In this document: positions 4,344-56,821 of the stretch, piece after piece | Position numbering within the stretch: position 1 is the stretch's first letter | Layout of the letters: the number at the start of each line of letters is the position of its first letter | Assembly: GCA_044892505.1 (NCBI GenBank) | Contig: CM097882.1 | Coordinates: forward strand, 522,164,001-522,228,000 | Source of the DNA: Schmidtea nova | Taxonomy: Eukaryota | Direction: 5' to 3' | Length of the DNA stretch: 64,000 bases | Notes under the pieces: model-generated | Told to the model about the DNA's origin: nothing | The model's input: only the letters and a program-made list of their open reading frames with translations | Databases searched by the model: none | Program-made: the position numbers and the translations under genes

Positions 4344-5592
4344 TTTTTTTGATTAGCGTGAAAAAGTGAAAATATGTAAATATTAAAACAACATCTAATT
4401 TAATCCATTTAATAATTAATTAATTTAAAAGATTGAAAATTTTATCTAAGGCACTACAGTGATTACCATCATTTTGGCGACAACAAATTAACCACAACAA
4501 AATTTGTTAAAAATTGAGCATATGGTGTTCGTTATGTTATGGTGACTTTTTTATTTGTTTGTTTGTTTGAAGTTGATGGAGAAAGAAGAATGCATAGGTC
4601 GTGCATGGAGTTTTGTGACAACTCTTCTAAAATTTTTTAAAGAAAATTTCTTCATGAAATTTTCATTTTGTCATTATATTATAAATAATATAAGAGTTCA
4701 AACTACATATATCCAACAACATGTAGAAGATATTAATGACCAATTTTAAAAATTTCAAAATAATATATTAAAATAGTTAAATTTTATCATTCAATTCAAT
4801 CTATACAACAAGGAACATATTCAAACTATTTTAAAACATTTAAAATACACGGCTTAACAGACTTCTAGACAATAATTGTTGGATTCAAAATTCTTATCAA
4901 CAACGTTTCACATATAATGCGTTTATATTGATTATTAAGAATTTTTGATAAGATGTTAAAATATTTCTTATAGCTTTTATAATGATCATTATTATAATAA
5001 AAATATTTTTATGTTATTCTATTCATTTGATGTAATGATAGTAATGATAGTAATTATAGTCATCTGTTTAAAAAATTTTGAAATGATTTTTTAGAGCTGT
5101 TTTCTAATGATGCAATTACAAGAATAGCTAGTCAACGTCTTCATAGCTACTCTTGCACTCTTACAAAACAGTTGATATTTATCCAGTTGTTTGTGACTGC
5201 CTGAGGTGATGAGAACGTGATAAGTGTTCATCGATTTCAGAGGAAACCATGTGAGTTCCAAGTCAATCTCTGTCATGGAGAGAAACAAGGTAGAACCATA
5301 TAGACGAGACTGATGTAAATATCGCTCTAGGAAAAGAATTAGTGGAGAATGATCCATATACGTTCATGTAAGACATGTATGACACATAAAACTACATAAA
5401 ATTTGTCCCATTATATTTTTGTGAAATATTGTAATCACGTGATAATTTATTCACACAAATAGCGCTCTATTCTAAATTCAATTTACCATAAGCAGAAAAT
5501 TTTACACACTGCCTGATACATATCCATATCCTTAGTAGTGGTATTTTGTCATAATCGCAAGATAACACGCAAAATTGAAATTAAATACATTC

Positions 5593-16758: not shown

Positions 16759-19700
16759 TCTAGTAAAAATAATTAACGGGTTTTTGAATATTTATTTTTA
16801 TAACATCAACTGCTTATTAAAACAATTGAAATTAAATTAAACAATAATTGAATTAAGCACGTAAATTAAATTAAGCACATCTCCCCGTGATGTCGTCATC
16901 AATATCACTCGTCAGTTCATAGTCATCCAAGTAACGTGGCGGATTTCGTACTCTTATACTTCTACGCACTGAATCGTCAACTTCTAACTCTGCAACCTCG
17001 GTAGTGTGTTGCATTTGTAATTCATCCTCTGTGGAATTCTCTTTTTTACTTATGTCGGAAACATGACGAGGCATACCGCCAATCATAAAATTTGTAGATG
17101 AATTTACTTTTGTCACTCTGCCTTTATTCCACCGAGAAGTACATCTTGCATCAGGAGGTTTTACATAAACCACCTCTCCCACAGTAATCCCGCCTTCTGG
17201 ATCCGTCAAGACATATTCCACTTCATCTGGGTGTCTCCATACGCAATTTAACGTTAGGTAGGAAGGAGACAAGTCCTTATCAACATCGTCTCTTAACGCC
17301 ACATTGAACCAATAAACCATATCCAATGGTTCTCCGCCAGACCGTGCAGCCATACGCTTGATCGTTCTATGTTTCCGCTCGATTACCCCATTTCCAGCAG
17401 GTCGATATGCACATCTGAATATGCGCCTAACCCCCCACTTCTTGCACAGTGAATCCATCGCTCCAGATCGAAAGGATGCAGCGTTATCTACGAGTATTTC
17501 TACTGGTGAACCTCTTTCCCTGAATATCTGCTCTAAATTTCGAATTATGACTCCAACTTCCTCTCCAAATTGCAAATCGACTCAGTCCACAATCGATAAT
17601 TGTTAAATACCTTTTATCCTTATAGTGAGCCACGTCGATCGCGATCCTCTTCCAATTTACCTCGACACCAAGCTTCCCGTGCTTCCATGTAACCGGTGCT
17701 GGATCAATAGATCTGCATTCTACACATTTGATAATGACATCTTGCACGTCCTTTTTAGTAATATTTGGGAATTTTCTCTTAGCAAGATGCAACGTTCTTT
17801 CAGCGCCTAAATGATGAGCATTGTGAGACTTTACTAAGTCATCCATTCTTGTAATTACTACAGATGTTACAGCTTTTACCCAGTACAATCACATCTTAGG
17901 TACTCTCGTTAGTATATCTGTTTTATTCCTCTCTGTAAATACTAACTCTATCGAAAGAGCTAAATTGAAACTATCTTGCAACTCCTCGATTATCTGTATT
18001 CTCCGCTGAATTAACATCTCTGATATTCCGTGTGGACGTACTCTTTCTTGATTGGACAATATAGAGGTAACCCAACTTTTCAGTGGCTGAATCAGTTTTT
18101 ATTAAGATATCTTTCAGGCCCCAAGCTAGACTTACATTTATGCCTTTAATAACGGCATCTAGCTCAGCTACATTAATATGACATACATCAATCTTCTTCC
18201 TCAACCAGGACGCATCTTCAACTACATGACCTCCAATTTCCAAACAAACACCCAAGGGCAAACTAATTGCGTCACACCATACTACACTGTTAAGTTGTTC
18301 TGACACATGCCATTCGCCACGCACCGGGTCGTCTTTGGAAACACGATCAATAGTGTCAGTTAATATCTTTTGCGCAATATGTCCAATTTTAACATCCCAT
18401 TTCTCTCCACTACTGTGACGTTTTATGAAACCACACGCAACTCGCAACCAATTTGCCACTGGATAGTGACCGAGCAATTAACCACAAATTGAAAATAATT
18501 GACGTCTCGACACTTCCTGCCCACTCTTCAAGACAGGAAGCTCATTACCTCTTGTCCAAATCCGATCCATGTTACGCATTGTTATTTGCAATCCTAAATC
18601 TCTTGCATCATCGAACTTCTCTGGATCTTTCACTTTTAACCCATATTTCTGCAAATGATTTATAACATCCGAGACGCAAAATAATGACTTGTCTACTATT
18701 ATGTTGTCTATATAACTATCTGTCGCTTCAGCAATGTCACTTCGTAAACTCAACACCTTTTTCAAAACACTAGACATAATCTTTGGGACTACATTCAACC
18801 CGAATCCCAGTCTAGTCAAATAGTAAAACTTATTGTCATAGCATACCTTTTGATACTTCCAACATTCTTCATCGACATGCAACTGTAAATAAGCATTCTT
18901 TAAGTCGAGCATAATAACATCTCTACCCATCTTTCGCCATTGTCTCAATGACTCTCCACACACGTCACTTTGCCCAGTGTGACTCTTGACGAACTTATTC
19001 AATTCTCGGAAATCCATAACAGGTCGAACTTTATTCCTGTTCGGCTGATCCACTGCCATTAATGGAATCGTACCACCGACGGTTGATTCGGCCGGTACAA
19101 GCCATCCTTCCTCTATCGAACGCCTCATCTCTGCATCAAACGGTGCTTGAATATCGTTTGCCATCTTATAACAAGCAATCTTGTTCCACAATATCGCTGG
19201 TCCAGACTTCCATTTCCATTTGACGACCCATTTCTTGTCGAATCTAGCTTCGAAATCTTCGTCTATAATATTGATGACGCTCGGAGAAGAACTTGCCCCA
19301 GTGACACACTTATCACTCAGCACACATACCTTATCTTTCGAAAATACGACTCCATCTGTACTAATCAGGACACCCCCTAATCTTCCAATAATATCCATGC
19401 CCAGGATCATCTCAATATCGTAAGGTAATCTATACCTTTAATCACCAAGTTTACCAATATATCACAATAACACGACACAGAGGTTCCATTTGCTATCATC
19501 ACCTCATCCGTTCTTCTCAACTGTTTGCTTACCAACGAAGCCAAAACAACAGATCAAAGCATTTGCCTCTCTCCCATCCACTTTAATTGTGATTATTTGC
19601 AACGCCATTACTGGTTCAATGGAGTAGACACCGGCGTTACTGTCACCCCATTGTCGTTTTTTAATTCTTATTTGGACATACTCTAGATATGTGATCGGTG

Positions 19701-20434
19701 CCATTACAAGACCAACACCTTGTACCAAACTTCTTAAAACAACGTTCAGCTACGTGGCCAATCTTATCGCAATGAGTACAACGTCTTACTTTGTTATATA
19801 CAACGTTGACACATTCAATGTCTTGAAATCTCGTATTCATCATTGTCCGTGTTATCTGAACAATTTCCTCCATCGGCATAGTATCAATCTTTGGAGTAGC
19901 CTGCAACAATCTCGACAATTCTTTAGGTAGTCCTACGACAAACGCGTTCCTAACGGAGTTCTCATTTACTCTTGCAAGCTTTGCATGAAATCTTAGATCG
20001 GCCAAAAATACATCCACATATCCTCCAGTCCATCTACAATTTCTCATTTTTTCGTATGATAAAAACATACTTGGAGAAAAAGCTTTTTCCAATGCATCCT
20101 CGATTGCTTCAAAACTAGCCTTGTCCTTTTCTGATAAATGTTCGTAGACGGCATATGCATCGCCTTTCAAAAGAGTAGACATAAAAACTTCTATAGTTTT
20201 TATCTTCAACATCTTTACAATTGATTTGAGTTGAGCAACCAGCTTGCAACATTGCCGGTTCCATCGAATTTTTCCAGATATTTCAAAAACTTCCATCGAT
20301 GACCGCGATAGCTTGTAGTAAAAATTATTAACGAGTTTTTGAATATTTATTTTTATAACATCAACTGCCTATTAAAACAATTGATATTAAATTAAACAAT
20401 AATTAAATTAAGCACGTAAATTAAATTAAGCACA
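16759..20434 (-). mobile_element. Compact LTR retrotransposon D (3.68 kb), 121-bp LTRs, TSD AAGAC
   Basis: Near-identical LTRs at 16759-16879 and 20314-20434 (TGTGCTT...ACTACA); 5-bp TSD AAGAC on both sides; PPT-like GGGGAGA next to the 3' LTR; gag with two knuckles, RT (LDLKNAYLQ, YIDN), RNase H, integrase with HHCC finger; several frameshifts. Confidence 0.93.
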
Positions 20435-28062: not shown

Positions 28063-28843
28063 TGTTGGGTATTTGCGATGTTTAGTCGGTGCTGTTAGTC
28101 TGACTCCTGGTGTTCTTTAAATTTGATTCAATAAAATAACCCAACACAGAAGAATTTATTTGTAACAATCACACTTTTTGACACACTAAGTCTCTTTAAA
28201 ATTTCACAATAACTTTTATCACTGCTTCTCCGACTTCGCGTAGGGATAAGTCTCCCCAAGGAAGATCTCCCTTTCTGGTACGCTGGAATAATAAATTTGG
28301 TTTGGAACTTTTCAAATATCGCTCTTAACTCCTCGCTTGCTAAATTCAAACTTTAGTATTTGTCGTTCCCTTTTATACTGCTTCTGATGATTGGTTTCCC
28401 ACTTCGCTGGAGCTGTCAAATGGTAGTACGATTTGACGTTTTAATTTTCCATCTGTCGGTTACTCTTCGGGTCTCCTCCAAAGTTATTTTTCTCAGGAAT
28501 TATTACCTGTCATATTGCTTGTCCGGGTTTCCCACACTCTCCGGGTTCTCCATTGTCTCGGGTTTCCCATTTGCTCGGGCTTTCCCTTAGCCAATTAATT
28601 ATTAATTAATAATTTAATATTTCAATTATTTCTTTCTGGGGACCCCCCATTGACTTTGTTTTATTATTTTTGGATTCGTTTCAATATTCGGCATCCACCC
28701 ATACCAATTTCCCCCGCTAATTCTCGGTTTTCGAATTTTACCTAAATTTTAATTAATTTTGAAAATTTTATACTTTATTGATTTTTACTAAGTTTTTATG
28801 ATTTTTATTTTTGTATTTTTCTAATTTTTACTAAACCTCAACA
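28063..28843 (-). mobile_element. LTR (781 bp, TG...CA) preceded by a polypurine tract, i.e. a 3' LTR of a minus-strand element
   Basis: Minus strand reads AGGGGAGAGG-TA-TGTTGAGG...ATACCCAACA; layout related to the 2.5 kb and 44.8 kb solo LTRs; flanks do not form a TSD. Confidence 0.75.
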
Positions 28844-28927
28844 TACCTCTCCCCTTTAATTTAGATTCGACCTCGAATCTATGTGTTTATATACATGTAT
28901 AAGTATTATTTGCCCATTTTTTTGCAA

Positions 28928-29114
28928 TGCTAATAATAACTCTAATAATAATAATAATAATAATAATATTAATAATAATAATAAAAATAATAATAATATT
29001 AATACTAATAATAATACCCTTAACAATATTAACAATAATACCAATAACAATACTAACAATACTATCACTAATAATACCAATAACATTACTAACATTAATA
29101 ATCCTAATAATAAT

Positions 29115-29194
<80 letters not shown>

Positions 29195-29245
29195 CACTAA
29201 CAATAATGATATTAGAGTATTACCGACGATAATGATAATGATAAC
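28928..29245. repeat. (AAT)n low-complexity tract
   Basis: Imperfect AAT/AAC repeat; source of poly-N, poly-I and poly-L ORFs. Confidence 0.95.
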
Positions 29246-31264
29246 TATCATCTTATATTTTATATATATAAGTATTTTCTATGTATTTATTCTGGAATGG
29301 AATCTTACAACTGTAACATTGTAAAATGTAACTATAAGTAAATAAAATTTAACCAAAAATGTTTTTAATAAACCTCAACCAATTGCAAAATTTTCATTAA
29401 TGCCAAAATACATCAAATGAAATATTTCATTACAAATTTCTAAAAATCTTATAAATTTATCTATATAATTATTACTGGGAATATCCGATATATATTACGG
29501 GACACGGTGAGTTGCCAATTATTTCATGTTGTTAATAATTTCTACATTCAGTCTATAATTAATAGAAGATTTATTTATTTCAGACATCAATTATTTCCTC
29601 ACTTAAATACTTTTTTACATATTATATATTTATGCATCTTATTGAATACGAACAATTTCGAGCAGGAAAAATTAAGAGAACAAAGAAATTGGTAGAATTT
29701 GATATATCAATGCGGCAGAAAACCATAAGAATAGGCAAAATTCGTCTGTGTCTAAAAATAATACAAGAAATCCTGTTATTTCGCATTTCTGTTTGTTAAA
29801 AAAATTCACTTAATTAAAACGACATAATAACGATAATAATAATTGATAAACCAATTTTTTTTTAAATTAACTATAATTAATGAATTTTTTTTTTTAAATG
29901 GAATCATTGTTACATTACGATAATGAATCGATTCTATGAGAATAGATTGAATCCTGTCAAAATACTATGAATGATGATTTATGATTAATAATGATTACTG
30001 TGATTAACTCTGATTAATAATTTACTGATGGAACTATTTTATCTCTAGGGATTAATTTCCTCCTCGGTGAAAAACACTCCCTCTCCGCCAGAATATTTCG
30101 AATCAGAAACTAGCAGAGACCATTTATCAAAACTGACAAATTTTTTTTAACGAGACTGACAAGGATATTTATGATAGTTACATTTCTGACTACTAAAACA
30201 AAACCTTTTCGGGATTAAGAACTGCTTTTTCTGTGAGGGTATGCCTATTGGAAAAGTGACGTTTGTTTCTCTCTCATTCGTCAGCCAGTTTGCCTATATT
30301 ACCAGGTTGACTATCATAATGTTCATCATATCATTTCATTATCTTGGTTTTCGAGCAAATCCACCTGTTATTTTTTTGGATCTATTCTTAAGTAAGATTT
30401 TAATAATTTCTTTCTTATTATTGCATTTCTTATTTTTTTTTTGATTTATAACTTTGAATTTTTTTTTTAAATTTATAAATTTGAATTTCTTAGTAATATG
30501 TTTATGTGATCATCTAATTCATTATTTTTCAGTGGCTACTGTGCTCCAATGTTTCAATGACAATGTTTCAAAATTCCTACAATTGTGTACACATTCGCTA
30601 AATACTGTCGCTACGCATCTGACTCGTAAAAGCATAAAACGAATTATTCTTAATTATTAAAAATAATAATAAATCGGTATGAAATATACGTTGTCAACAA
30701 TTCTTTTTGTTTTATTATTATTAAAAATAAATTTTTAATAGTTGAAATTACAGTCTACTTCTTTTTAATAGAAGGCATTTTTTTTTAAAAATGTATAGCT
30801 TATACATCGAGTTTACTCGGCGTATGTTTGATATATAAATCAAAGTTTAGGTAATCCTGAAATAAATTATGATTTTGAAACAAACGGTATTTAAGATGAC
30901 AAGTGGGTAAAGTAGTGATCTGCTTTCAAGATCACAGTGTTGATAAAAAGTTGAATGACAACTACATTTTTTTGCTTTGTATGTCAGTGTTTCAATTTAG
31001 CAATTGAGCATCAATATTCTCCTGTACTGTTTTCAATCATCTCATTTATAATTTGTTTCTTTTGGGAAATGAGAAGTAAAGAGGTATGATATATTGTATT
31101 CCCAATGATAAACACAGTGTGACAGGAACTGCAGAACGTAAATGTTTTACTTTATTTATTCAATTATATGTTTAATGTAAGTTCGATTTAATATTTATTT
31201 TACTTAACACTATGTGAAATTTGAAATTTAATAATAATTCGAATGATTGTGTGACGTCGTCAAC

Positions 31265-31311
<47 letters not shown>

Positions 31312-31356
31312 TAACAATAATATCATAATTATCTTTTTTCACCTTTGATCTTTTTT

Positions 31357-31540
31357 TATTATTATTATCAATAATTCTCATAATGACTATAGATCAAAAT
31401 TTTTTTTTATAAACAATAACACAATATTTCGGCACAGCCTTTATACACTTGATAAAGGCTGTGCCGAAATATTGTGTTATTGTTTATAAAAAAAAATTTT
31501 GATCTATAGTCATTATGAGAATTATTGATAATAATAATAA
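31357..31540. repeat. ~184-bp palindromic repeat embedded in (AAT)n
   Basis: Near-perfect inverted arms centred near 31445; same family as 13.4, 23.5, 24.3 and 50.3 kb. Confidence 0.9.
31445..31477 (+). ncRNA. Putative minimal type I hammerhead ribozyme (intact copy)
   Basis: ACAC-UUGAUAA-A-GGC(UGU)GCC-GAAA-UA-UU-GUGU. Confidence 0.65.
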
Positions 31541-31546
31541 CAATAA

Positions 31547-31577
<31 letters not shown>

Positions 31578-31978
31578 AATAAAAATAAAACTAACAACAA
31601 CAATATTAATTATTATTATTATTATTGCTTAGAACACTATAAAAGTATAGTGACATTATAAAATGATGATGCTACTGATATTAATTTCACTAATTATGAT
31701 GATAATGACACTGATTGCATTTACCTCTAACAACAGACCCTTCCCACTCGTCGTCCAGGGTAGCCAAACCCCGGCGATTGGGATTGTTTTGTTTGTTAGT
31801 TATTTATTTTATTTTTATCTCTATTTATAACAATTACTTATTTGCTTTATAAGTTGACTGAAAGTTAAAGCTACAGGGTCTAATTGGTGGGTTGCCATAA
31901 ATAAACGAATCCACAATATTTTACGATTATTTATTTTATAAATAAATCATATACAATTTAATAAATTTCAGTTAATCA

Positions 31979-33442
31979 TCAATCCATTTTTATCTCCATT
32001 CGATTTGATCCATGCTTGTACCGAACAATTGTTTCTTCTCGTTCATAGATAACACCGCTGTATAATATGGTTTTGCTAACTTCAATTGTCGAATCTGCTT
32101 TCCTTTTCAACTCGTTTACTTCTCTAGGCATTGGGCCATATTCTAACGTGGGTTGGAGTTTCACAATGTTCCAGTTTGGTATTGTTTCCAGACTCTCTTC
32201 AACTGGATTTATCAATGTTTCCACTGGATAACTTAGATCAATAATAGGAACTTCGCTCTCTTCCATTACTATGTCTTCACTTGTTAGATCTATTGCTTCC
32301 ATAGCCATGTTCTCCGGGATTTGTGCTAACTTTTGCCTATCGGTTCCTTGAGTTAATTTGGATGTGTTGGCATATAAATTTTTGTATTCCTTTAGAGAAT
32401 ACTTTCTTGATGGTTGTTTTCTGGGAATCACTATATCATCAATCCATTGATTCTCTACCCGTTGGTATATCTTCCGTATCGTTTTGACATCCTCCAGCGC
32501 AGAGTGTATCCCAACCTGCGTTTCTTCTCTGCATATTTCCCGTGCTACCGTCTGCAGCTTGAACCACTCTCCTCTTCTGGTTACGTTCATTCTTTGTAGT
32601 ATTTGTGCAGCTGCAAGATCCCGTATCCCATACAGTTGATCTACCCATAATCCCACATACTGTAGTTCGGCGTGTAAATCGTGGCCTATTAATATTTTTC
32701 CCACTGTTAGCCTCTGAATATCATTCATTTCCGAATATTGATCATGCTGATTTCTGCTGGCTACCTCTGTAATTCCATGGATCTTGGAATTGAAATGGCC
32801 AATTTTTCCTCTTGGGGTCAAATACACGTCTTTAATTATTTTTCCATGGTAATTTATCATCGCAACTGATAAAGGGATCATTCTTTTCGTTTCCGATGTG
32901 GCATATTCCGCGTCCACGAACATTATTCTGTTCCGAATTTCTTCCATATCCATTTCTTTCCTAATGAATGAGAGTTTCCTTTTTAACATTTCTGCTGATA
33001 TTTTCATCAACGTTGAATCCTGTTCCTCTGATGGCTGTGCGCTTGGCCTCTCATTTGGCTCGTTTTCTATTCTTGTTTCTATAACAATGATTGTTTCCTC
33101 ATTCGCTGCGCGTATAGGTTTCGCCATGATTTCCTTTTGGATCTTCCAGGACAAAAATTTCTTCAATTCCATCCACGGCTGATTCCCGTCCATTATTTCT
33201 ACTGTTCCTTTGATAACATGTAGGTAATATTGTTCTTTATTGGATATTCGAACTTTGTCCGTTAGCTTCATTCCCATCTTTCGGTGTATTCTGAGTATTT
33301 TAATTTTCATTTTTCGGTCGTCGATTCTGAAATAATTTGGGATTTGTAAGTTGTCTGTAATCTGGAATTTTTGCCCTGCATGGCGTCTTTGCAGCTTTGC
33401 ATAGCTGTCTAATGTGGATCTTGCCCATTGAATTTGTTCCAT
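31979..33442 (-). CDS. 487-aa protein with a DEDDh 3'-5' exonuclease domain (REX4/ISG20-like)
   Basis: ExoI FVDAEY, HGIT, ExoII LIGHDLHAEL, ExoIII HSALED; open and intronless. Confidence 0.85.
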   Translation of the reverse strand: MEQIQWARSTLDSYAKLQRRHAGQKFQITDNLQIPNYFRIDDRKMKIKILRIHRKMGMKLTDKVRISNKEQYYLHVIKGTVEIMDGNQPWMELKKFLSWKIQKEIMAKPIRAANEETIIVIETRIENEPNERPSAQPSEEQDSTLMKISAEMLKRKLSFIRKEMDMEEIRNRIMFVDAEYATSETKRMIPLSVAMINYHGKIIKDVYLTPRGKIGHFNSKIHGITEVASRNQHDQYSEMNDIQRLTVGKILIGHDLHAELQYVGLWVDQLYGIRDLAAAQILQRMNVTRRGEWFKLQTVAREICREETQVGIHSALEDVKTIRKIYQRVENQWIDDIVIPRKQPSRKYSLKEYKNLYANTSKLTQGTDRQKLAQIPENMAMEAIDLTSEDIVMEESEVPIIDLSYPVETLINPVEESLETIPNWNIVKLQPTLEYGPMPREVNELKRKADSTIEVSKTILYSGVIYEREETIVRYKHGSNRMEIKMD

Positions 33443-33849: not shown

Positions 33850-36800
33850 CTACACAATTGTTTCTTCATAGATCATCCAAGGTCTCGAAGGCTCGGATTG
33901 AATCGTAGGTCTGTATATTTTTATCGATTCGCAAAAGACAATAGCGCCAAATGTGATGAGAAAGATTGTTAGGATAATGATGGTTATAAATAATATCACA
34001 CACGCGATTTCTTTGTCATTGTTTAATAATGGTATAGTTTTATTATTTACAATTGATTTATTGGTGATGTCATTGAAAGGCGTTGTCATCTGATTTTGGT
34101 ACAGTGTATTTGAATCGCTGTCATTTATCTTGTCGTAAAAGATTTGGACGAACTTGTCCTCGACTAAAGTTACTCGCCATAGATTAGAATACGAGGTGCG
34201 ACGCTGATATTTGATTTTCATAAAGACAAATTTTGACCTTGACTTTGATCGTAGTTGTTGAAATGTTAATATTTGAGATTTATTGCTGCTGTCTAAGATT
34301 GCCTGAACTTTTCCACAATAGTATATAATAGCTTTTTGATTTGGGTCTGCTCTCCAAGTAACATTTATTAGTTGATGGTATATATAAAACTGAACTCGGT
34401 TCGTTTCGTTGATCAATTTTATCGTTTGTTGACTAGACTGAATTTCAATCCATAGATTATCACTGACGGTTCCATTATCATATAAGGATTTTTCATAATA
34501 ACGAATCAAGATATTATATGTCTGAAATAATTTCAAATTATCATAGTTTATAAAGGGTTTTCTGCTGTTCAGCGTGTCTATAGCATAATTCTGGAAGACA
34601 GTTTTCACTTGTTGGGTTTCTTGTGGTTCCCAATGTACATTAATTCCATTCACAACGGGTTCAATCGAAACAAGATGCTCTAACCTTTTCGTCCAAACAT
34701 CGAGATGTACCATATTATATATTTTTGTAGTGTTCCCTTTAGAGCTTAATTGTGTTATTAGCCACTGATATTTATAATTCATCGTTAATTGCCGTGCCAC
34801 GTGAATGTTTTTATTATAATTCAATCTAACTGGGGGTTCAAAATAATCTAGTAAATTATTTACTTCAATTTCCTCTTCCCTTTCACCGTGAAAAAACCAT
34901 ACGATCTGGGTACATGTTGCATATATGTGAATTTTATCCATCAATGGGATTCTTTTTGTTGCATACGAGGGAAAAACTCGTATTTCACTTGTACAGAAGA
35001 CATTTGCCATCATTATTGTTGAAATCAACAAGACTTTGTTGATATAGTTTAGTGGAGCTGGGTTTTTTGTAAATTTTTGTTTTACTGCTCCTTCTACGTC
35101 TTTAATTAGTTTTGATCTCAATGGATATCGTCTTATTTCCTCCGACGGAACTTTCTTGGACCGGTTTACATGAACAATTATTGTTCCAGCTTTTTTATTA
35201 TTCTGTGGGCGTAATTTCAAATTAATTTCTGTAGTATCACATACGATATATGGTCCTTTAAACGGTCGCTGCAATTTTGGGGATAATCCCTTTGTTGGCT
35301 CTGGTTTATTCACATATACTAAGTCACCAATTTTAATATCATGTGCATGAGTGCGCTTGTCGTAGCACTCCTTATATGCTTCTTGCTGATGTTTTATTTT
35401 AAGTCCGGCTTGAATCCAAACTGTCTGGAGTCTTTCTTGCATAATCACTTTATAATCTGATACATCCATATATTGGGAAATAGGCGACTGAAATTTCAGA
35501 TCGATAGGCATATTGTTTCTTCGTAGGTACATGAGATAGAAAGGTGTTTCACCGGTACTTTCGTTCACTGCATTTCTGTATGCATACAAACATGGTTTAA
35601 TGAATAAATCCCAATCTTTTTGTTTTCTATTTACGTATGACGATATCATATTAATTAGTGTTTCATTGAATCTTTCCACTAATCCATATGTCTGTGGGTG
35701 ATATGGTGATGTACTGATTTTCATTATTCCAAATAATTCTGTAATTGATTTGAACAATTCGCTTTGAAAATTTGTTCCTTGGTCAGTAAGCACTTTCTTT
35801 GGTGCCCCATATCGAAATATTATGTTTTCCACAAATATCTTTGCAACTGTCTCAGCTTTCTGGTTTTGCATGGGGTAGGCTTCTGGCCATTTGGTTAAAT
35901 AATCACAGAAGACAATAATGTATTTATTGCCGTTTGTCGTTTCTGGTAATGGACCGACAATATCCATTGCCGTCATTTCCATTGGTGCCACCGGTACAGA
36001 CATTGGTTTTAAAGGAACTCTAATTTTTCGTCCTGTGTTTCGTCTAGTTAAGCATATTTCGCAAATGTGACACCATTGTCTGACATCTTGTTCTATAGTG
36101 TCCCAATAGTATTTTTGTTTTAATCTTGACAATGTTTTTCGAGCTGATAAATGCCCTCCTAATGCTCCGTCATGATACAACAATAATAATGATTTTCTAT
36201 GTTTTGTTGGAACTATAATTAATAAATTTTCATTTTTTACGCATTTTAGCAAACCATCATGTATAATGTATTTATGTCTTTCCTCGACAATATGCTTCCA
36301 GTCGCTTTCTTTTCTAATTGTGACAGCATGTTGACGTAGCTGATTCAATTCATCATCCTTTTCTTGATCACTTTGCAATTCCTTCATATTATTTGCAGTT
36401 TTAATTGCCATAAATATAGTGTTTTCATACTTTGTTTCATATTGAACAACGTCCTCCTCCTCTGAAATTCTCGACAGCGCGTCTGCATTTGCGTTCGACT
36501 TTCCTGTACGATATTTGATCTCAAAATCATATTTCTGCAAAGCAATTGACCATCTTATCAGCTTACTTGCCGAGTCTCTGTGCTTCATTAGCCATTGTAA
36601 TGGGTTATGATCAGTGAAAACAACAAATTTCATACCGAGTAAGTATTGCCTGAATGTAGTTATTCCATATACTAATGCTAACGTTTCTTTTTCAATCGTA
36701 GAATAATTCTTTTCATGCGGTCTTAACGTTCGACTGGCATAAGCGATAACGTGATCTTTCTCACCTTCTACTTGTTGACCTAGTATCGCCCCTACTGCAA

Positions 36801-37587
36801 ACTTACTAGCATCTGTCATCAATAAGAATGGCCTTTTAAAATCAGGGCATCTTAATATAGGTTGTTTCATTAGGCTTTCTTTGAGTGCATCGAATGCTTC
36901 TTGTTGAACCGATGCCCATTTAAATTTTGCTTGCTTTTTCAACAGCACATTTAAAGGTTGTGCGACATGCGAAAAATTTCTTATAAATTTTCTGTAATAA
37001 CTAGCTAGTCCTAGAAATTGTCGGACTTGGTCTATATCTTTGGGAATCGGATATTTCTTAATCTTTTGTACATTTTCCGGATTCGGCTGCAATCCTCGCC
37101 GGGAAATAATATGACCTATGTAAACAACTTCAGATTTTCCCCATTCACATTTTGACGGTTTTATCTTTAGGTTTGCCTTTAACAATCGTTTAAATACTGT
37201 TCCCACATCCCTCAGATGTTCCTGAAAATTGTTTGAAAATATTATTATATCATCAATATACACTAGTGCATGTGGGATGTCCCGTAATACGAAATTCATA
37301 CCTCTTTGAAAGGTAGCCGGTGCTCCCGTTAAACCAAACGGTAAGACATTAAACTCGTACAGACCTTTACCGTCTGAATACGCAGTTTTTCTCCTGTCCT
37401 CTTCTTTGACCTTAAACTGATTATACCCTTTGTTAAGATCAATAACAGTAAAGAATTGCACCTCCCCCATTTGATCGAACATTTCTTGGGGAACTGGAAT
37501 AGGGTATGTATCTTTTCTTGTGACTTGATTTAACTTTCGATAATCTACACAGAATCGTAGATCACCATCTTTCTTTTTCACTACCAC
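33850..37587 (-). CDS. Pol (RT-RNase H-integrase) fused in frame to a signal peptide, an Ig/FN3-like ectodomain and a TM helix
   Basis: RT YIDDII; RH LMTDAS...EKE..FTDH; IN HHCC (YHDGALGGH...CEIC), MDIVGP, LTDQG, LVERFN; GPY motif; then hydrophobic KVLLISTIMMANVFC, ~320-aa N-glycosylation-rich region and TM IACVILFITIIILTIFLITFGAIVFC. Confidence 0.9.
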   Translation of the reverse strand: MVVKKKDGDLRFCVDYRKLNQVTRKDTYPIPVPQEMFDQMGEVQFFTVIDLNKGYNQFKVKEEDRRKTAYSDGKGLYEFNVLPFGLTGAPATFQRGMNFVLRDIPHALVYIDDIIIFSNNFQEHLRDVGTVFKRLLKANLKIKPSKCEWGKSEVVYIGHIISRRGLQPNPENVQKIKKYPIPKDIDQVRQFLGLASYYRKFIRNFSHVAQPLNVLLKKQAKFKWASVQQEAFDALKESLMKQPILRCPDFKRPFLLMTDASKFAVGAILGQQVEGEKDHVIAYASRTLRPHEKNYSTIEKETLALVYGITTFRQYLLGMKFVVFTDHNPLQWLMKHRDSASKLIRWSIALQKYDFEIKYRTGKSNANADALSRISEEEDVVQYETKYENTIFMAIKTANNMKELQSDQEKDDELNQLRQHAVTIRKESDWKHIVEERHKYIIHDGLLKCVKNENLLIIVPTKHRKSLLLLYHDGALGGHLSARKTLSRLKQKYYWDTIEQDVRQWCHICEICLTRRNTGRKIRVPLKPMSVPVAPMEMTAMDIVGPLPETTNGNKYIIVFCDYLTKWPEAYPMQNQKAETVAKIFVENIIFRYGAPKKVLTDQGTNFQSELFKSITELFGIMKISTSPYHPQTYGLVERFNETLINMISSYVNRKQKDWDLFIKPCLYAYRNAVNESTGETPFYLMYLRRNNMPIDLKFQSPISQYMDVSDYKVIMQERLQTVWIQAGLKIKHQQEAYKECYDKRTHAHDIKIGDLVYVNKPEPTKGLSPKLQRPFKGPYIVCDTTEINLKLRPQNNKKAGTIIVHVNRSKKVPSEEIRRYPLRSKLIKDVEGAVKQKFTKNPAPLNYINKVLLISTIMMANVFCTSEIRVFPSYATKRIPLMDKIHIYATCTQIVWFFHGEREEEIEVNNLLDYFEPPVRLNYNKNIHVARQLTMNYKYQWLITQLSSKGNTTKIYNMVHLDVWTKRLEHLVSIEPVVNGINVHWEPQETQQVKTVFQNYAIDTLNSRKPFINYDNLKLFQTYNILIRYYEKSLYDNGTVSDNLWIEIQSSQQTIKLINETNRVQFYIYHQLINVTWRADPNQKAIIYYCGKVQAILDSSNKSQILTFQQLRSKSRSKFVFMKIKYQRRTSYSNLWRVTLVEDKFVQIFYDKINDSDSNTLYQNQMTTPFNDITNKSIVNNKTIPLLNNDKEIACVILFITIIILTIFLITFGAIVFCESIKIYRPTIQSEPSRPWMIYEETIV

Positions 37588-37617
37588 GATTGAAGCTGAA
37601 AATGGTGATGAGCTATC

Positions 37618-38482
37618 TCATATTATTTTGAATTCTTTCATTGCTTTGATTTGCCTATCACTTTCTTCTTGATGAATGTATGGAATCCTATATGGCCTCA
37701 ATTTTATAGGGGTTTCGTCCAGCAATGGTATCTCATGTTCAATCACTTGAGTGAGTCCCAAATCATATTCATGTTTCGCGAACACATTCCTGTATCTCTT
37801 TAGTAGTGCTGTAAATTCTTGTTTTTGCTCATCTGTCAAATCATTACTTGTAATTTGAGGTCCTTTGTAAATCTTTATATTTCTGGGCAACCTTTGTACT
37901 TCTTCTTGTTTTATTTTTGTCAGTTTCCCGAGCTTTGTTTTGGGTTTCATCTGAACAGATTTTGTGCTACAATTTGCTAATCTTACTGGTACGGTTTTGT
38001 CTTTAACTTTTACTACTTCATCGCACATTGCTCCGTCGTACTTCTCTATTAATTTTTGATTTGGTTCAAATATACATTCATCTTCGGAGACATTCATTAC
38101 ATTGGCATAGTATATAACTTCGCTTTTTGGTGGTATTTCCAAAGTTTGATTTAAAAAAACTTGTCCCGCTTCGTGTACAACTTCACCAGTTAGTCCTTTT
38201 ATCAATTTTCCCGTTCTTAAATCAAGAGAAATTCCTTGTAATTGTTCCATAACGTCCATTCCAATCAAGCATTTGACAGGGCTTTTTCTCATTACAGATA
38301 CCCAATGAGTTACTTCTTGATTTCCAATATTCAGCTTAACTTCCAATTTTCCAACGATATTCAATACATTATGCGTCATTGATAATAATTTTCGTAGTTG
38401 GCTTTATTCTTGCCTTCTCCTGACTCGTCAAGAGATTCTCAGATACTATGCTGTGACTTGAGCCTGAATCCAATAACGCTTA
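37618..38482 (-). pseudogene. Aspartic protease and RT N-terminus of the large element
   Basis: ALLDSGSS at 38462-38470 directly after an in-frame TAA (38480-38482); 1-nt frameshift near 38400; in-frame TGA at 37618-37620 before SSSPFSASIVVVKKKDG. Confidence 0.9.
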
Positions 38483-38950
38483 AACTTTTCGTCTATTAAA
38501 TTGTATGACAATTCGAGGTTGTTTTCCTCCCAATTCTATGGTCAATAATGCATAACTACATGGTAAACCAAGCATATTCTTTCTTTCAATTTCGGCGCTT
38601 GATGGTTCAATCTTTTCTAATTCGACTTTAATCTCATCAACTGGTTTCATTTCTCTCAACTTCTCACTTGGATATACAGGAGCTGTTGGCATAAATGTCG
38701 GTGTGTACCACTTAGAGAGAGTGTCAATTCCAGTTAGTTTTGGTATTGGTTCCAGCAAGAATCTGGATTCGGGGTCTATTCTACTTTTTATTATACCCCG
38801 TCGAAACGATTTTGGCTCTGATCTGCCGCCATTGCTATCATTGTTGTGACCATTATTTTTATCCTCAAATTCGCATAGTGATTCTTCACTTTTCGGATCA
38901 TTTTTCAATTGTGCTCTAACACTTGCCATTTCCTTATATTGATGATTTGT

Positions 38951-40804
38951 AATGAAGAATCTAGCCAAAAACGGAATACAACCAATAATCATTTTCCATG
39001 ACCATCCGTAAATTGCATATATTCGATGAGCGGACAATATTTGTGATATTATTACTTTTATTGTTACTGCAACTACATAAATGCCAATTAAGCCTGCACA
39101 AGCTTGTCCTAAAAACATAAATCTTCCCCAAATTTTTTTCATTGTTTTAAATGTAGCTCGTTTAAAATGATCAGGTGTCAGCAAATATTCGTAATTAGCT
39201 TTTCCTTCTCTATTTGGCAGTATTGGATCAATCATCTCAGAAATCACTCGTTCCTTTTTTGATGGGAATAATAAATTTCTTTGGGCTTCTTCTATATCTT
39301 CGCTTGCGTATAGACCCATTTGTGCCATCTTATTCATTGATGTGAAATTTACCAAGTACTCTAAATTTATTAATTCCAATTTATCTGGAGTTCTAACTCC
39401 CCGGTATTCTGGTAACGCTATCTATGAATCTTGTGCTAAACGATATAGTGGAGCTAATAGTCGATTACATTGTAGAATTTTCGGTTTGACTTGTTCTTCC
39501 AACAATATTCGAGTTATCGGTTCCATGAATCGTAATTTCCCGCCAACACTTACCAATAATTCATTTGTACATTTCTCATATTTCGCGATTTTCACTATAG
39601 TTTCTTTGCATCTGTAACTGTATAATGCTTCTCCAAAGATCCTAGCGAATACACCATTTTATGATATTAGCATGGGTGCTACTAAATTTGGATTAGTAAT
39701 TGCCATTGCCATTCGATTTCTAAGTATTTCCTTGTTCAACTTACAGTCGTTTAGAATCATTTCTCTATATACGTTTTCCATGATGTTTTGACTAAAATGA
39801 AACAAATAGTCAATTTTATTATTGAAGTAATGAGTTAATTTGATATCATCCCGGTGAATTCTTGTTTTAGCCTCATATACGATTGTTTTAGATACATAAA
39901 CTCCTTTGTAATTTGTTGCATATACAGTTTGACCACATTTACTCGTTATGTCTTTTTTTATGAACCGCATGCTGTCTGTTGGCAATGTTGACATTAACAC
40001 TGTTGCCGTTTGTCTCGTCCAAACTTGGGTTGATCTAACTGTATTGTTCGGTTTATAATTCACATTAAAATTGTCCGGTCTTTCCCTAAATTGCTCTCCG
40101 CTCAATTCTTTGAAATTAATAGTTTTTAAATGGGATAAGTTGCATATATTAGTCTTGACATCATAGACAAGAATCGATTCTCCAGTGTGACAACTAGTTT
40201 GTTTCATATTACAGAATGGATGAGTTTGTAACTTTCCTGTATCGTCATCAAACGACCCTTCGAATACTCTCAATTCTGTTAGATATTCCTCTATTACTAC
40301 TGCTTGTTTTATCACTTGATCATTTATTTTATACGGTTCTCCCTCACAATCGCCGTCTGATTTCATTACTCCTTTCACAATTAATGTTTCTCTGATTTGA
40401 TGGTTTACTCGAGCTTTCAATCGAATTTCAGGACTAATTTTTAATTCCCCTGTTTGAAATGCCGTTAAACAGTTTTCTGGTAACACGTCCACCGGTCGTG
40501 GAATAGCATGCATTTTTATCATCGAAGTATGGCTCCATTTGCCACAAAAGAATACGAACGTGGTTCGTTTAACGATACATTCCCTAACTTGAGAACGCCG
40601 TAAATCGGATTCTTGGTAAACATGATATTTTGCTTCATTTTCAATTTTTAATTTTCTTGGGTATGCATCTGGGCATTCTGTCATATCGACCACAGAATAA
40701 ATTTTCCCCATTTCTGTTTGTGAGCAATCGTATGCCACCAATGAAGTAGCTTGTGCAATTATTGTGCATAAAATAACCATCATGAACATCACCCAAGGGA
40801 ATAT
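38951..40804 (-). pseudogene. Chuvirus-type envelope/fusion glycoprotein with signal peptide and C-terminal TM region; two in-frame stops
   Basis: Signal IFPWVMFMMVILCTIIAQATS then LVAYDC; Cys-rich ectodomain; GEALYSYRC...C.NEL.V...F.EP.TRIL...C; TM region WGRFMFLGQACAGLIGIY...YGWSW; stops at 39659-39661 and 39422-39424. Confidence 0.75.
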
Positions 40805-40891
40805 CGTAGTTTTTCTTAGTTTTGGGTCTATTTTTTCGTTCAACTTTCTTTGAGGTGGATTCTCATCTTCTTGTTTCTTTCTTTTCTTTGT

Positions 40892-41265
40892 TAAAGATGA
40901 ATTTAATGCATTCCAACCTCCAAGCTCTTTTATCCCTTTCATCAAACATTCATTTAATAGTCGAGCCGCAGTGTCAATCAAATTCTCAATCTGATCTGGC
41001 CTAGTAAATGCACGAATACCAATTTCGGAAACCATATGTGTTAAACTTGTTAACACTGTTTTTCTATCGATTCCATTTTCGATCAATTTTTCAATCCTTT
41101 CTCTTTTACAGAAATCACCCTTTTTCCAAATTCATGCTCAATTTTTGGAAGTCTCTCTTTCACTTCCTCAACCATCCCTTTCAATTCCTCCTCAGCTTCT
41201 GGTTCTATTTTTAGAATTGGGTAAACAGTTTTAACTAGGTTTCTTATTATTTCTTTAGTTTCATC
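40892..41265 (-). pseudogene. Bcl-2-like helical domain (split by a frameshift near 41095)
   Basis: BH4-like EIIRNLVKTVYPIL; BH3-like ELKGMVEEVKERL; BH1-like KLIENGIDRKTVLTSLTH; BH2-like LNECLMKGIKELGGWNAL. Confidence 0.6.
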
Positions 41266-41589
41266 AACTTCCCGCTCTATATTTACCAAATATTTCTTCA
41301 TCTCATATAAAGTTCTAGGTTTAGTACTCCAATTATTCATTTCCACTTTCTCGACATTTGTCTCTCTGCTAATTGTAGTTTCTGCTACCTGAATATTGAT
41401 TTCCTTCTGATCATCACCTTCATCGTTAGCTATTGCGGTTTCATTTTCTCCTATTTCATCTCTCTTTTCTTCTGTGTCGGAGGATTCCCCATTACCAAGC
41501 ATTCTCGGGTTAAATTCTTTATTTGCTATTATACGATTAATTAAATATCCCTGACTTCCATCAGTACTTAAATATCCATATTCATCTAA

Positions 41590-42276
41590 TTCTTGTGGTA
41601 TGCATCCACAGTCATATAAATATTCATCGTCATCCAGTGCTTCACCTTTATGTTTCAACACTATAATTCCATCTTGTCCTAACATCTTCGTAGCTCTTCT
41701 ACGTATTTTCCGCACTTTCGTACACCAATGCTCTTCTACATACTCAGTTTTTCCAATATCTTCGTATTCTATTGCAATTACTAATAAATTCATTTCTGCT
41801 CTATCTTCTCTAAGCTCCTTGCCCAATTTTCTCAGTAATCTCTTTAAATTTCTACTATATTTGGTTCTTTTAAACAGATGCGGTCGTATTACGTTGATAA
41901 TTTCTATTTTATCTTTTTGCTCAAATTCAGATTTCTCAATTAATTTCACTATTTCATTTATTTCGCTTTCATCGCCAATATATAAAACATCAGATAGCTC
42001 CTTTAACACTTCCCTCGGATCACTTTTCACCATTTCACAACTACTCCTCATATTGACTATTTGTAACTCATTTTTATCTCCTGTTATAAAACCACAGTCT
42101 ACCAAATATTCCTCGTTATCTAATTCTCTATTTTTAAATTTTAATTCTACTACCCATCCTTCGCATTTTTCTCTTAGTCTCCTTTTTAAATCTTTCACAC
42201 AATCATAGGCTTCACATCGACAAGTAATCACACTTTTATCACAGTCATTAACAACATCAATAAAAATAAAATCTAA
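41590..42276 (-). CDS. Two ubiquitin-like modules within the polyprotein (part of ORF 41083-42939)
   Basis: CVKDLKRRL...VELKFKNRELDNEEYLVDCGF and TKVRKIRRR...VLKHKGEALDDDEYLYDCGC; pattern resembles ubiquitin 'vK.ki...rLif.Gk.LeD..tL.dy.I'. Confidence 0.6.
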
Positions 42277-42779
42277 CCATCCATTTTCTCGGAATGCTTT
42301 TCCAAATGTTTTCATCAACTCTTTGATTTCATCTCTATCTGCTAAATTTATTTGATAATAGTTTGCACACAAATTAATCACGCATTTTAGTTTCCTCATA
42401 CTCAGCGACATTTGACTCAACTTTTTAATTGACATTAATATTTTGGATGATTCTCTTGCGCTAGCTTCTAGCAATTTCTCAAGTCTCTTCATCATTATTG
42501 TAACTTTTTCGCTTTCCAAATCGTCCTTTGTACAAACTCCTTTCGCTTCCGTTTCAGTCATATCCGACCCATACATCATATGATTATCTAATTCCTCATC
42601 AGATTCAAACTTAGACATTAAAAGATCCAAGCGTCGACCCATTTCTTTCACTTGATTTTCAATTCTATCATTAAATTCGTCTGATTGAACAAAAGCAACA
42701 TTTTCTGCTGGCATTCTATCATTTTGAAAACGAATTGATTTTTTTAATATTGGTTTCTGAAATTTATCGACATTTCTCG

Positions 42780-43972
42780 GGCATGATCTAGCTATATGTC
42801 CATAGCCTCGACATGAATGACATTGGATTTGGCCTTGAAGGTTCACTCTATGGCGAAGTGGATGGAGATCTCGATCTGGCAAAACAATTACGTGAAACAT
42901 GTCCTTTCCTTCCACAGTTGTAGCATTGTATATTATCATTAGTTCGTTGATCTTTAATACTAAATTTATTTAAGCTTTTTTCACTATTACCCTTCATCCA
43001 ATCTGGCCACATTCGTTTTGGGCTTCGTTGTACATTATTTTTAGACCAGCATTGATTGCTATTGTGACCAATCTTTTGACAGTGATCACATTGAATTGGA
43101 GTTGGGCTTTTTTGCGATCGGTTCTTGAACCAACATTGATCGGCATGATGTCCCATCCGTTGACAATAACTGCATTGAATTGGTTGTTCTTTTTCGTCAA
43201 TTTGAACACGTGTTGATTTATTCATCTCAAATTTTGGTCTAAATTTTGGTGATGGACAACTTGATTGCTGGAGCAGATTGTTTCTGACTGGAGAATTGGA
43301 TCTTTCTCTTGATTCATTGATAATGGCGAAGGATTCTGATTTCGGCTTTGCACTTTTTAAATTTAATTCAATTTTCATAGCCTTTTTGATTAACTCATCG
43401 AAGTTATTGAAATCTACATAACATAAGGCTTTTTTGATTTCCCCTTTTACTCCCGCTAAGAACTGATCTTGTAATAGTTCCTTTATCTGCTTTGCCACTT
43501 CAATCTGTTCCGGTTTTACTTCGAAGGCCTTTTCTGCAAGCGTGGTCAAATGGTATGCAAATTCACTTACGGATTCGTCTGATTTTTGTACTCTATTATA
43601 GAATTTCTGCCTCATTATCCGTTTTATGTCTCCTCCGACTAACTTCGCGGCTAAGGCATCTTTCAGTTTTGTCCAGTCATTGGCAATTGTCCTTTTGTCA
43701 ATTTGTTGCCAGGCTTCTCTTGCTGCTCCCTTTAAATACAGTGGTAGTCTTTGCACCATTATTGATTGGCTCCATCCATAGGCTGTGGCATACATATAGT
43801 AATCTGCCATAAAGTCGACAAATTCCACTGGATCACCCCCATATTGGTTAACTGGTAATTTTTGGCAGCTAGCATAATCATTGCCATTTCCGGTATTGCT
43901 TGTGGACATGGGTGTATCATCATGACCGTTTGGGTTGTTCATTTCGTCTTCTGGTTTCCTGTTGCTTCTCAA
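42780..43972 (-). CDS. Gag of the large element with four CCHC zinc knuckles (fourth after a frameshift near 42860)
   Basis: Retrotransposon gag-type capsid region (YGGDP.EF...F..RVQK.DESV.EF...L..LA); CSYCQRMGHHADQC, CDHCQKIGHNSNQC, CYNCGRKGHVSRNC, CHSCRGYGHIARSC. Confidence 0.9.
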
Positions 43973-44263
43973 TTCGTAAAATGGTCTGGTTGGTATAACT
44001 TTATCTCTTCTGAATTTTAATATATCAATTATAAAATTTTACCTTTTGTTGAACTGCTTTTCATGCGATACATATAACGTTGAAATATGATTTACAAAAG
44101 AAAAGATGAGTTGTATAAACGTGTTTTACGCATTTTTCGTGGTGGGGGTCACCGACGACCCTCAAGGCGCTGCAGACTATTTTTGTGATTATCAGTTGTT
44201 CCAGATTATTACGCTTAAGTTTCTAAGCAGTTATTATCATTGCTTAGTCTTATTAAGTAGTTG

Positions 44264-44689: not shown

Positions 44690-45902
44690 ATGTCTTTTAA
44701 AAGATTTGATATACTGGCACCGGGAATTATACCATTTCGAATATGGATGTCAAGCGGAATAGATCTCAATGCTGTTTTAATGGATTATTTAAAGACGATT
44801 GATCAGGAACTATTGGTAGTAATATATCATGAACCTTGTGTATGTTGGGGTCATGCTTAGATAAGTATAAGATAAAATAAAAAGCACAAAACCTATGTAC
44901 AAATCAATAAAAAAACACAAAATCAAAAAAAGGATAATTAATGTTCATAGATTAATTAAAAATTTGAAAAAAATAAAAATAAAGATTTGACGAGGGAAAT
45001 TGGTATGTACGGTGGGAAATGTAGAGGAGAGTACGGATATGATAATAAAATATCAATGGGGGTGCCAGAAAAAGATATTCAGAATATAGAAATTAATTAA
45101 AGATTTATGAATAATTTATTAGCCATATAGAAAACCCGAGTCAAGAGGAAGCCCGAGTGCATGGGAGATCCGGCCTAGTGGAGAGCCCGAGCAACGGGAA
45201 ACCCCAGAAGAAATCGAATTAACAAAAACGCGGATCAAATAAATCATATCAGAGCAAATTATAATTAGCATAATTCCAATTACGGAAAGTCATAATCAAA
45301 TTTGACCGCAAGTTTGGAAAACATAACCAATTTGTTGTCAAATTGGTCAACTATAAAAGCGGCAAGAAAACAGAAAATTACCAGTTTGGCCGAAGAGAAT
45401 TTCCATTAGTTTTTAAGATTGGGTAAGTGGAAAAGGGGATTATCGTACAGTAACCTTTGCCAATCAAGCGTATCAGAAAGGGCAATCTACTCTTGCTAGA
45501 CCTAGCCGTATCGCTTAGAAAATAGTGCAGAAAGAGAGTGTATAAACAATAAAGATTGTACTGATTTTAGCTGTTGTGAATTGTCAAATTTGAATAAATA
45601 AAATTTATTGTGTTGGGTCTCAGTTATATCGTTATTAAAGGAGCACGAGGAGTCAGAAACTAGACCTACTCAAATTAATAACCCAACATGTATATCGATG
45701 TGAAAGTTGCGTTGATCAGTTGAAGAACGATCATGTATGGATTCTAAAAAATGAGTTGAGAAAATATCATTTTTCAACCATTGTAGATAAATTTTCAAAC
45801 ATTGTAGATAAATTTTCAAACATTGTATATAAATGTTCAAACATTGTTGATAACTGTTCAAGCATTGTTGATAACTGTGCAACCATTGATGAAAACTGTT
45901 GA
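44690..45902 (+). pseudogene. ~120-aa ORF split by the solo LTR
   Basis: ATG at 44690; 51 codons to the TSD; after removing the LTR and one TGTA the frame continues (CVYRCESCVDQLKNDHVW...) to TGA at 45900-45902. Confidence 0.5.
44843..45688 (+). mobile_element. Solo LTR (846 bp, TG...CA) with 4-bp TSD TGTA
   Basis: TGTTGGGG...ACCCAACA flanked by TGTA on both sides; same family as 2532-3361. Confidence 0.9.
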
Positions 45903-56760: not shown

Positions 56761-56821
56761 ATTTAATTTTAATCGATGGTCTATAATATTGAATATTTAT
56801 TTTTTTTTTAAAAATCACTCT

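Follow-up and report, generated by a model that had tools for sequence, protein, structure and literature searches.

An FN3-type membrane protein predicted in frame behind the integrase of a gB-carrying errantivirus in Schmidtea nova

The window, a 64,000-nucleotide stretch of the Schmidtea nova genome, carries on its minus strand a Ty3/Gypsy errantivirus of gag-env-pol order whose Env is of the gB type. Gag (42848–44038) is recognized through the Pfam families Retrotrans_gag and zf-CCHC, the latter marking its CCHC knuckles, and lies next to a region (41083–42969) in which no Pfam family scores above the cut-off. This region comprises approximately 600 acidic, helical-looking residues and, judging by length, lies within the long frame of other copies. 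The gB-type fusion glycoprotein (38480–41131) is broken in this copy and exhibits its own internal signal and transmembrane segment according to hydropathy; the Monjiviricetes/gB-type family PF24664 matches Env with E-values of 5e-36 and 4e-25. A preliminary description of this DNA had placed the real fusogen upstream of the segment under study, which agrees with the location of this Env between gag and pol. The adjoining region (37618–38403) has no Pfam match, and in this copy a stop separates it from the RT; from its motifs and position we take it to be protease-like. The core of RT, RNase H and integrase (35257–37617; RVT_1, RT_RNaseH, Integrase_H2C2 and rve) completes the order PR-RT-RH-IN, in which PR is placed by position alone, and includes the H2C2 zinc finger. 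The end of the integrase (35110–35256) runs from the GPY/F motif to a basic YPLRSK motif. Further along, a separate ORF (31979–33442) that is part of the element encodes a putative DEDDh-type exonuclease, with an RNase_T match below the cut-off (E 4e-4), a D-x-E motif, a glutamate at the third acidic position and then HSALED; its DEDDh-type domain is preceded by an N-terminal region of 170 residues. The 3′ LTR (28063–28843) was identified by an LTR match and by its ends, with a polypurine tract ahead of it.

Searches of the same genome revealed five subfamilies of related copies, A to E. Within this family, LTR pairs with TG...CA ends, a primer-binding site, a polypurine tract and target-site duplications are found, the LTR is approximately 0.8 kb long and the full polyprotein comprises approximately 3,400 residues. 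Four of the six copies examined combine LTR pairs of 99.2–100% identity with 4-bp target-site duplications, indicating that the family was active recently. The window's copy has its 3′ LTR only, with no 5′ LTR beside gag, and this LTR matches those of two subfamily A copies at 94–95%. It also contains stops and frame changes across the part from gag to protease; due to this damage, the segment behind the integrase could not be made from this copy by way of its polyprotein. The exonuclease ORF or homologous DNA occurs in five of the six copies examined (subfamilies A–D) and was not seen in the one copy of subfamily E examined. Subfamilies A, B and C share one primer-binding-site-like sequence behind the 5′ LTR (L201–L208), which presumably resembles a tRNA-Trp site. 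Long AAT microsatellites (28860–29260 and 31260–31620) occupy parts of the 3′ non-coding region of the element, as they do in several copies, and an inverted repeat element with perfect arms of 92 bp (31353–31543) is found between the window's two AAT tracts. An LTR-like repeat is present in two copies (2556–3361 and 44872–45688) which are approximately 90% alike, lie 42.3 kb apart, and are distantly similar (approximately 70%) to the element's LTR in the opposite orientation. The window additionally harbors two related Gypsy remnants, an RT/rve element with DUF7047, a MULE-FLYWCH transposase and a C4 zinc-finger piece, located at 5986–9395 (plus strand), 16871–20368, 55390–56796, 58827–62456 and 3834–4352 (all minus strand).

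A single stop-free frame of 1,255 residues extends on the minus strand from 37617 to 33853 and is closed by a stop at 33850–33852. Pfam assigns RT, RNase H and integrase to its first ~800 residues and no family to its last 416. The preliminary description had proposed that this reading frame passes the integrase without a stop and continues into a receptor-like type I membrane protein, and the verified frame bears out the continuation. All of the motifs on which the proposal was based were located, namely GPY (35256–35248), RRYPLRSK (35133–35110), the signal-like stretch KVLLISTIMMANVFC (35037–34993), CTQIVWFF (34914–34891), INVHWEP (34644–34624), YNILIRYY (34518–34495), INVTWRA (34368–34348), a transmembrane stretch of 26 residues (34008–33931) and the short tail with its terminal PWMIYEETIV (33882–33853). 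At least eight N-x-S/T sequons had been claimed and exactly eight were counted, a number marginally above chance for an Asn-rich sequence (shuffle mean 4.3, p = 0.05). All eight are shared in position with at least one of six other lineages, two of them with five of the six. A basic YxLR motif after the integrase (35110–35133) is retained across all lineages: Y-x-LRS is found in all five subfamilies and in the outside record P0005, and the outside record P0006 has YNFRPR at the position of YPLRSK. We take the YxLR motif to resemble the chromatin-binding motif of foamy virus Gag.

The extension is predicted to begin with an internal signal (34984–35046), consisting of a hydrophobic core followed by small residues. 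The hydropathy of this stretch amounts to 2.0–2.6 in all 14 genomic rows covering it and in P0005, and to 1.6 in P0004; an AlphaFold2 model places a helix of low confidence here (residues 28–44), and small residues occupy the likely −3/−1 sites in subfamilies A–E, P0005 and P0006 despite sequence change, as judged by eye. The proposed signal-like character is thus supported at the level of prediction. A Ser/Thr/Asn-rich stalk (34018–34134; pLDDT below 50), variable in length and sequence and with an identity of 7–45% between subfamilies, is followed by the transmembrane helix (33931–34008), which appears as a helix in the model and reaches a hydropathy of 2.8–3.6 in all 17 rows extending that far. 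Across the polyprotein, hydropathy indicates one signal and one clear transmembrane segment per glycoprotein, with PR, RT and IN containing neither; in subfamilies B, C and E, the Env signal is preceded by an extra stretch of moderate hydrophobicity, a possible complication for the topology. For the extension, hydropathy, sequons and model agree on the type I layout put forward earlier, which is a prediction. The remaining tail of 26 residues (33850–33930, including the stop codons that follow) ends in E-T-I-V, a PDZ-ligand-like terminus. E-T-x-V/L closes the tail in all 58 open copies of A–D and is absent from all 17 of E, while P0004 and P0006 end in S-T-L-V and P0003 in V-T-Q-V, so that three of four deep lineages carry an S/T-x-V end, with a chance expectation of ~0.01–0.04 each. 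S/T-x-V at the C-terminus is the pattern of class I PDZ ligands. The references of PMC3395148 include a title on the trafficking of HTLV-1 Env and a PDZ-binding motif. As subfamily E lacks this end and yet comprises many open copies, the tail motif is dispensable.

The signal region also bears on the way in which the protein is produced. Fusion to the integrase might exist in the DNA only, with the protein being produced chiefly from a message that is spliced or initiated internally, in the manner of a classical env gene. A methionine lies just ahead of a canonical signal in P0004 and P0006, and subfamily E has one at the start of the hydrophobic core; the methionines shared by A–D, however, sit late in that core, neither an acceptor-like site nor a methionine before the signal is common to the five subfamilies, and no lineage has a stop after the integrase. 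A separate message is therefore quite improbable as the main source. RNA evidence was sought and none turned up. Splice-type joints at the signal were not seen among those listed in four contig runs of unknown kind, a result uninformative on expression.

The fold of the ectodomain was modeled with AlphaFold2 on an alignment of 18 sequences, with middling confidence (mean pLDDT 67, pTM 0.47). The model exhibits three beta-sandwiches, mostly at pLDDT 70–90, in addition to the disordered stalk and the transmembrane helix. Its best PDB matches in Foldseek are three-domain fibronectin fragments (~297 columns, E ~1e-8); among the named viral matches, FN3 proteins and phage tail proteins predominate. 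Matches to FN3 type I proteins in the Atlas, at scores of 0.90 or lower, agree weakly with this fold. Domain 1 (34687–34953) has seven strands and superimposes on fibronectin FN3-6 with a Z-score of 8.8 and an rmsd of 2.6 Å over 82 of 86 residues, while domains 1 and 2 together superimpose on FN9-10 with a Z-score of 9.3 and an rmsd of 4.0 Å over 166 aligned residues. A host FN3 profile was built from 28 host FN3 domains, with 60 column shuffles per domain as control. Domain 1 (score 20.9, probability 14%) and domain 2 (34414–34686; score 26.7, probability 56%), the most conserved of the three, each scored above all 60 shuffles, whereas domain 3 (34135–34410) did not match the profile. The FN3-like assignment of this last domain is based on structure, comprising seven strands and its place inside the three-domain FN3 superpositions, and on its likeness to domain 2 (E 0.0005). 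FN3 hallmarks, namely the seven-strand sandwich, the strand-B Trp, the Leu-x-x-x-x-x-Tyr corner and the lack of an Ig disulfide, are present in the predicted model and alignment. Pfam fn3 (PF00041) gave no match in any of the 18 members at E-values up to 10, and a sequence search of the PDB with the extension returned nothing meaningful. The ectodomain is accordingly predicted to comprise three FN3 domains, the third being less certain.

An FN3 fold had been proposed at the outset, with two such segments behind an Ig-like one. Fold searches and the host profile support the FN3 assignment and raise the number to three, since the supposed Ig-like segment is itself FN3-like and has no Ig cysteine pair. 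In fact, the cysteine of C.QIVW is a tyrosine in subfamily E and P0004, and strand F contains no cysteine, leading to rejection of an Ig domain. Class I cytokine receptors carry paired N-terminal cysteines, WSXWS and a Box1 tail. None of these is found in the alignment, the tail has just 26 residues, and the structural matches rank plain tandem FN3 arrays, such as those of fibronectin, contactin and receptor phosphatases, ahead of cytokine receptors, making the cytokine-receptor-like role suggested earlier a poor fit. FN3 is a generic fold and does not by itself imply a function.

The occurrence of the fusion was scored at 104 distinct loci (L001–L030 and L061–L140, minus six duplicates), leaving out L031–L060, which are mostly the same places, and L141–L170, which are centered on domains 2 and 3. 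The junction from GPY to domain 1 is open in 89 of the 104 copies, across the five subfamilies, and the frame stays open from GPY through to the end in 75 (101 reach the end), counts which are biased towards intact copies since the scored loci are top hits. Nine stops near the junction lie at eight different positions and are thus scattered rather than confined to one site. A conserved stop after the integrase is contradicted by these data, and copies stopping right there, which the preliminary description had named as evidence against its reading, are not the rule. Furthermore, 23 of 108 extension matches lie within frames of at least 3,300 codons, and fusogen matches are found in frames of equal length. 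Outside this genome, P0006 exhibits the same layout and the same fusion, with 67% identity in the integrase and 23% in the extension, and in P0005 the YxLRSK motif precedes the signal; these two, the only homologs with judgeable sequence upstream of the signal, look element-borne. The four database homologs are unnamed, P0006 being a “hypothetical protein” in its source. A search of 90% clusters with a single protein returned none and with a profile returned only P0004 and P0006, and a scan of metagenome contigs with P0006 revealed no relative.

Selection on the extension was estimated from 45 open copies by the Nei-Gojobori method. Among A–D, dN/dS amounts to 0.23–0.33 at dS values of 0.9–1.4, which points to purifying selection beyond the window's copy. 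Of the four pairs involving E, two are saturated and two yield 0.26–0.30, and values within subfamilies are 0.32–0.65. Domain 2 has the lowest dN/dS of the three domains in five of the six A–D pairs. These results also bear on the possibility that the extension is passenger DNA or a chance read-through in a single copy. The window's copy, being broken upstream, has no polyprotein route to the protein, but most copies in the five subfamilies are open across the extension, an outside lineage has conserved it, and its dN/dS lies well below 1 at synonymous distances that approach or exceed 1. Read-through in one copy is refuted for the family by this selection and conservation, and the passenger explanation as a whole is scarcely credible.

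The integrase core has a dN/dS of 0.02–0.05 among A–D. For the Env ectodomain, which was compared in 14 of 15 fetched copies (one has no start motif), dN/dS is 0.04–0.09 in eight unsaturated pairs and identity between subfamilies is 70–92%, as opposed to 33–59% for the extension; sequons number 1–3 in Env versus 6–9 in the extension. Between A and C, Env is 92% identical and the extension 59%, and between A and B the values are 82% and 59%. By these comparisons, the extension is a functional protein that diverges at several times the rate of the fusogen and out of step with it. The uncoupled divergence argues against a subunit tightly engaged in triggering Env. The fast change of the extension may reflect relaxed constraint rather than host binding. 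The integrases of A and C and of A and B are equally close (92–93%) though Env differs, which could reflect env exchange or a difference in rate (L213–L221).

A purely intracellular role was also considered, in which the second signal would tether Pol to the membrane, the transmembrane helix and tail would steer assembly to a polarized site, and the FN3 rod would act as a spacer or a folding helper for Env. The presence of signal and transmembrane helix in every lineage examined, the conserved basic linker and a stalk that is nearly unconstrained in several pairs are consistent with such a role. Yet purifying selection acts on each of the three domains, whose core residues and sequons are conserved, and three folded domains exceed the needs of an anchor; a role of this kind is thus unlikely.

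The origin of the protein was addressed in a limited test of 30 of the 108 host fn3 loci, none of which gave a match better than E 0.03. Accordingly, the term “captured,” applied to the gene in the preliminary description, remains a guess. Clusters of many similar host fn3 exons, located at 428–432 Mb of C1 and 83–85 Mb of C2, suggest expanded FN3 gene families. Another explanation is that the protein acts on the surface of the producer cell as a decoy or modulator which would block superinfection, mimic a host FN3 receptor or occupy PDZ scaffolds. Its receptor-like layout fits such a role, as do its Atlas neighbours, small FN3 type I proteins and cytokine receptors matched with weak scores of 0.85–0.90, and so do the S/T-x-V end in most deep lineages and the fast divergence between co-resident subfamilies in the absence of co-divergence with Env. 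Conversely, the limited test found no host homolog to be mimicked, adhesion and matrix FN3 arrays come first among the structural matches, and synthesis at a 1:1 ratio with Env and Gag would fit a structural role equally well. Overall, we consider a surface decoy or modulator somewhat unlikely.

The explanation we favor, at roughly even chances, is that the extension is a second type I glycoprotein which serves in attachment or cell-cell adhesion alongside the gB-type fusogen. Herpesvirus fusogens of the gB type require separate receptor-binding partners. A single polyprotein of the order Gag-X-Env-PR-RT-RH-IN-FN3 would thread the ER membrane in an alternating fashion: the first signal would lead the chain in and the Env transmembrane segment out, the enzymes would remain cytosolic, and the second signal and the final transmembrane helix would lead it in and out once more. 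Signal peptidase would free both ectodomains, and the element's protease would trim the integrase. Through alternating translocation of one polyprotein, both glycoproteins would arrive in the same membrane at a ratio of 1:1. Env, conserved and sparsely glycosylated, would then carry out fusion, while the variable and heavily glycosylated FN3 rod would bind a partner on the host surface or in the matrix, and the S/T-x-V end may anchor the protein on PDZ scaffolds at cell contacts, thereby favoring spread to neighboring cells. An attachment or adhesion role is favored due to the 1:1 synthesis with Env, the glycosylated rod on a stalk, the fast change and the adhesion-type structural neighbors, whereas two observations weaken its more specific versions, namely that the extension does not diverge together with Env and that E has lost the tail motif. 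One such version can be offered tentatively and is doubtful as a whole, namely a two-glycoprotein entry system assembled from unrelated parts, in which a class III fusogen derived from an RNA virus lies before Pol, and the integrase of the same ~3,400-residue polyprotein is followed by an FN3 adhesin whose tail binds PDZ domains, with spread at cell junctions and subfamily-specific tropism.

The backbone of the element is of a known kind. GAG-ENV-POL elements with gB-type Env are described from flatworms, nematodes and bryozoans in the available text of Chary and Hayashi (PMC13524379), and the Smed_errantivirus_1–6 elements of that study share with the present one the gag-env-pol order, a gB-type Env, multiple copies and near-identical LTRs. 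The window's Env is ~78% identical to that of Smed_errantivirus_1 over ~155 residues compared by eye with the supplement (PMC13524379), and judging by this comparison the element appears to be close to that published one. The available text of PMC13524379 contains no mention of fibronectin, immunoglobulin, exonuclease, polyprotein or attachment, and seven text supplements contain none of fibronectin, FN3, immunoglobulin or exonuclease. Burro/GYPSM1, a giant Gypsy element of planarians, likewise encodes a single long polyprotein in which gag, env and pol follow each other in frame and accessory domains are present, but it comprises 4,900–5,100 residues, as opposed to ~3,400 residues and LTRs of ~0.8 kb here, and the accessible part of its description lists MATH, BIR, BCL2, SUMO-like, ankyrin and dUTPase domains and no FN3 domain or second glycoprotein (PMC6431247).

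Precedents exist for accessory cargo, adhesion-protein capture, two glycoproteins and DEDD exonuclease ORFs. The crocodilian CrocERV31 captured nectin3, a three-domain membrane protein of adhesion type which lies at the env position, is under purifying selection and was proposed to aid spread (PMC4299795, as far as available). That protein is of Ig type, is ~76% identical to a known host gene and replaces env (PMC4299795), whereas the protein described here is of FN3 type, lacks an identified donor, continues the integrase frame and stands alongside a fusogen. The Atlas virus, a hookworm element of the Belpaoviridae, makes two glycoproteins, GN-like and GC, from one Gag-Pol-Env polyprotein; as in phleboviruses, a conserved fusogen and a separate attachment glycoprotein thus come from one precursor (10.1101/2021.11.23.469668, available part). 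The Atlas pair is adjacent, phlebovirus-derived and of class II, in contrast to the class III fusogen and unrelated FN3 protein which here flank Pol on opposite sides. The bdelloid elements Juno and Vesta carry an accessory exonuclease ORF of the DEDD family after pol, in which the third acidic residue is a glutamate as it is here, but their ORF3 is DEDDy according to the accessible text, as opposed to the DEDDh-type ORF (HSALED) placed after the FN3 protein (PMC5408684). Two further candidates were set aside judging by the parts available: fibronectin is only a histological marker in the OVEX1 study (PMC2717909), and the planarian nidovirus PSCNV contains FN2 rather than FN3 domains (PMC6211748). 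The literature searched (text rather than figures, and outside Repbase and most subscription journals) holds no description of an FN3 type I protein behind the integrase and beside a gB fusogen.

In recently active elements, a dedicated FN3 surface protein that evolves fast would provide a testable answer to the question of how gB-carrying retrotransposons locate their target cells. Flavivirus and alphavirus polyproteins have a multi-pass topology. By analogy, the arrangement described here would amount to a flavivirus- or alphavirus-like multi-pass polyprotein topology in an LTR retrotransposon. For the planarian host, a surface protein of this kind suggests that the elements may move among somatic, stem and germ cells.
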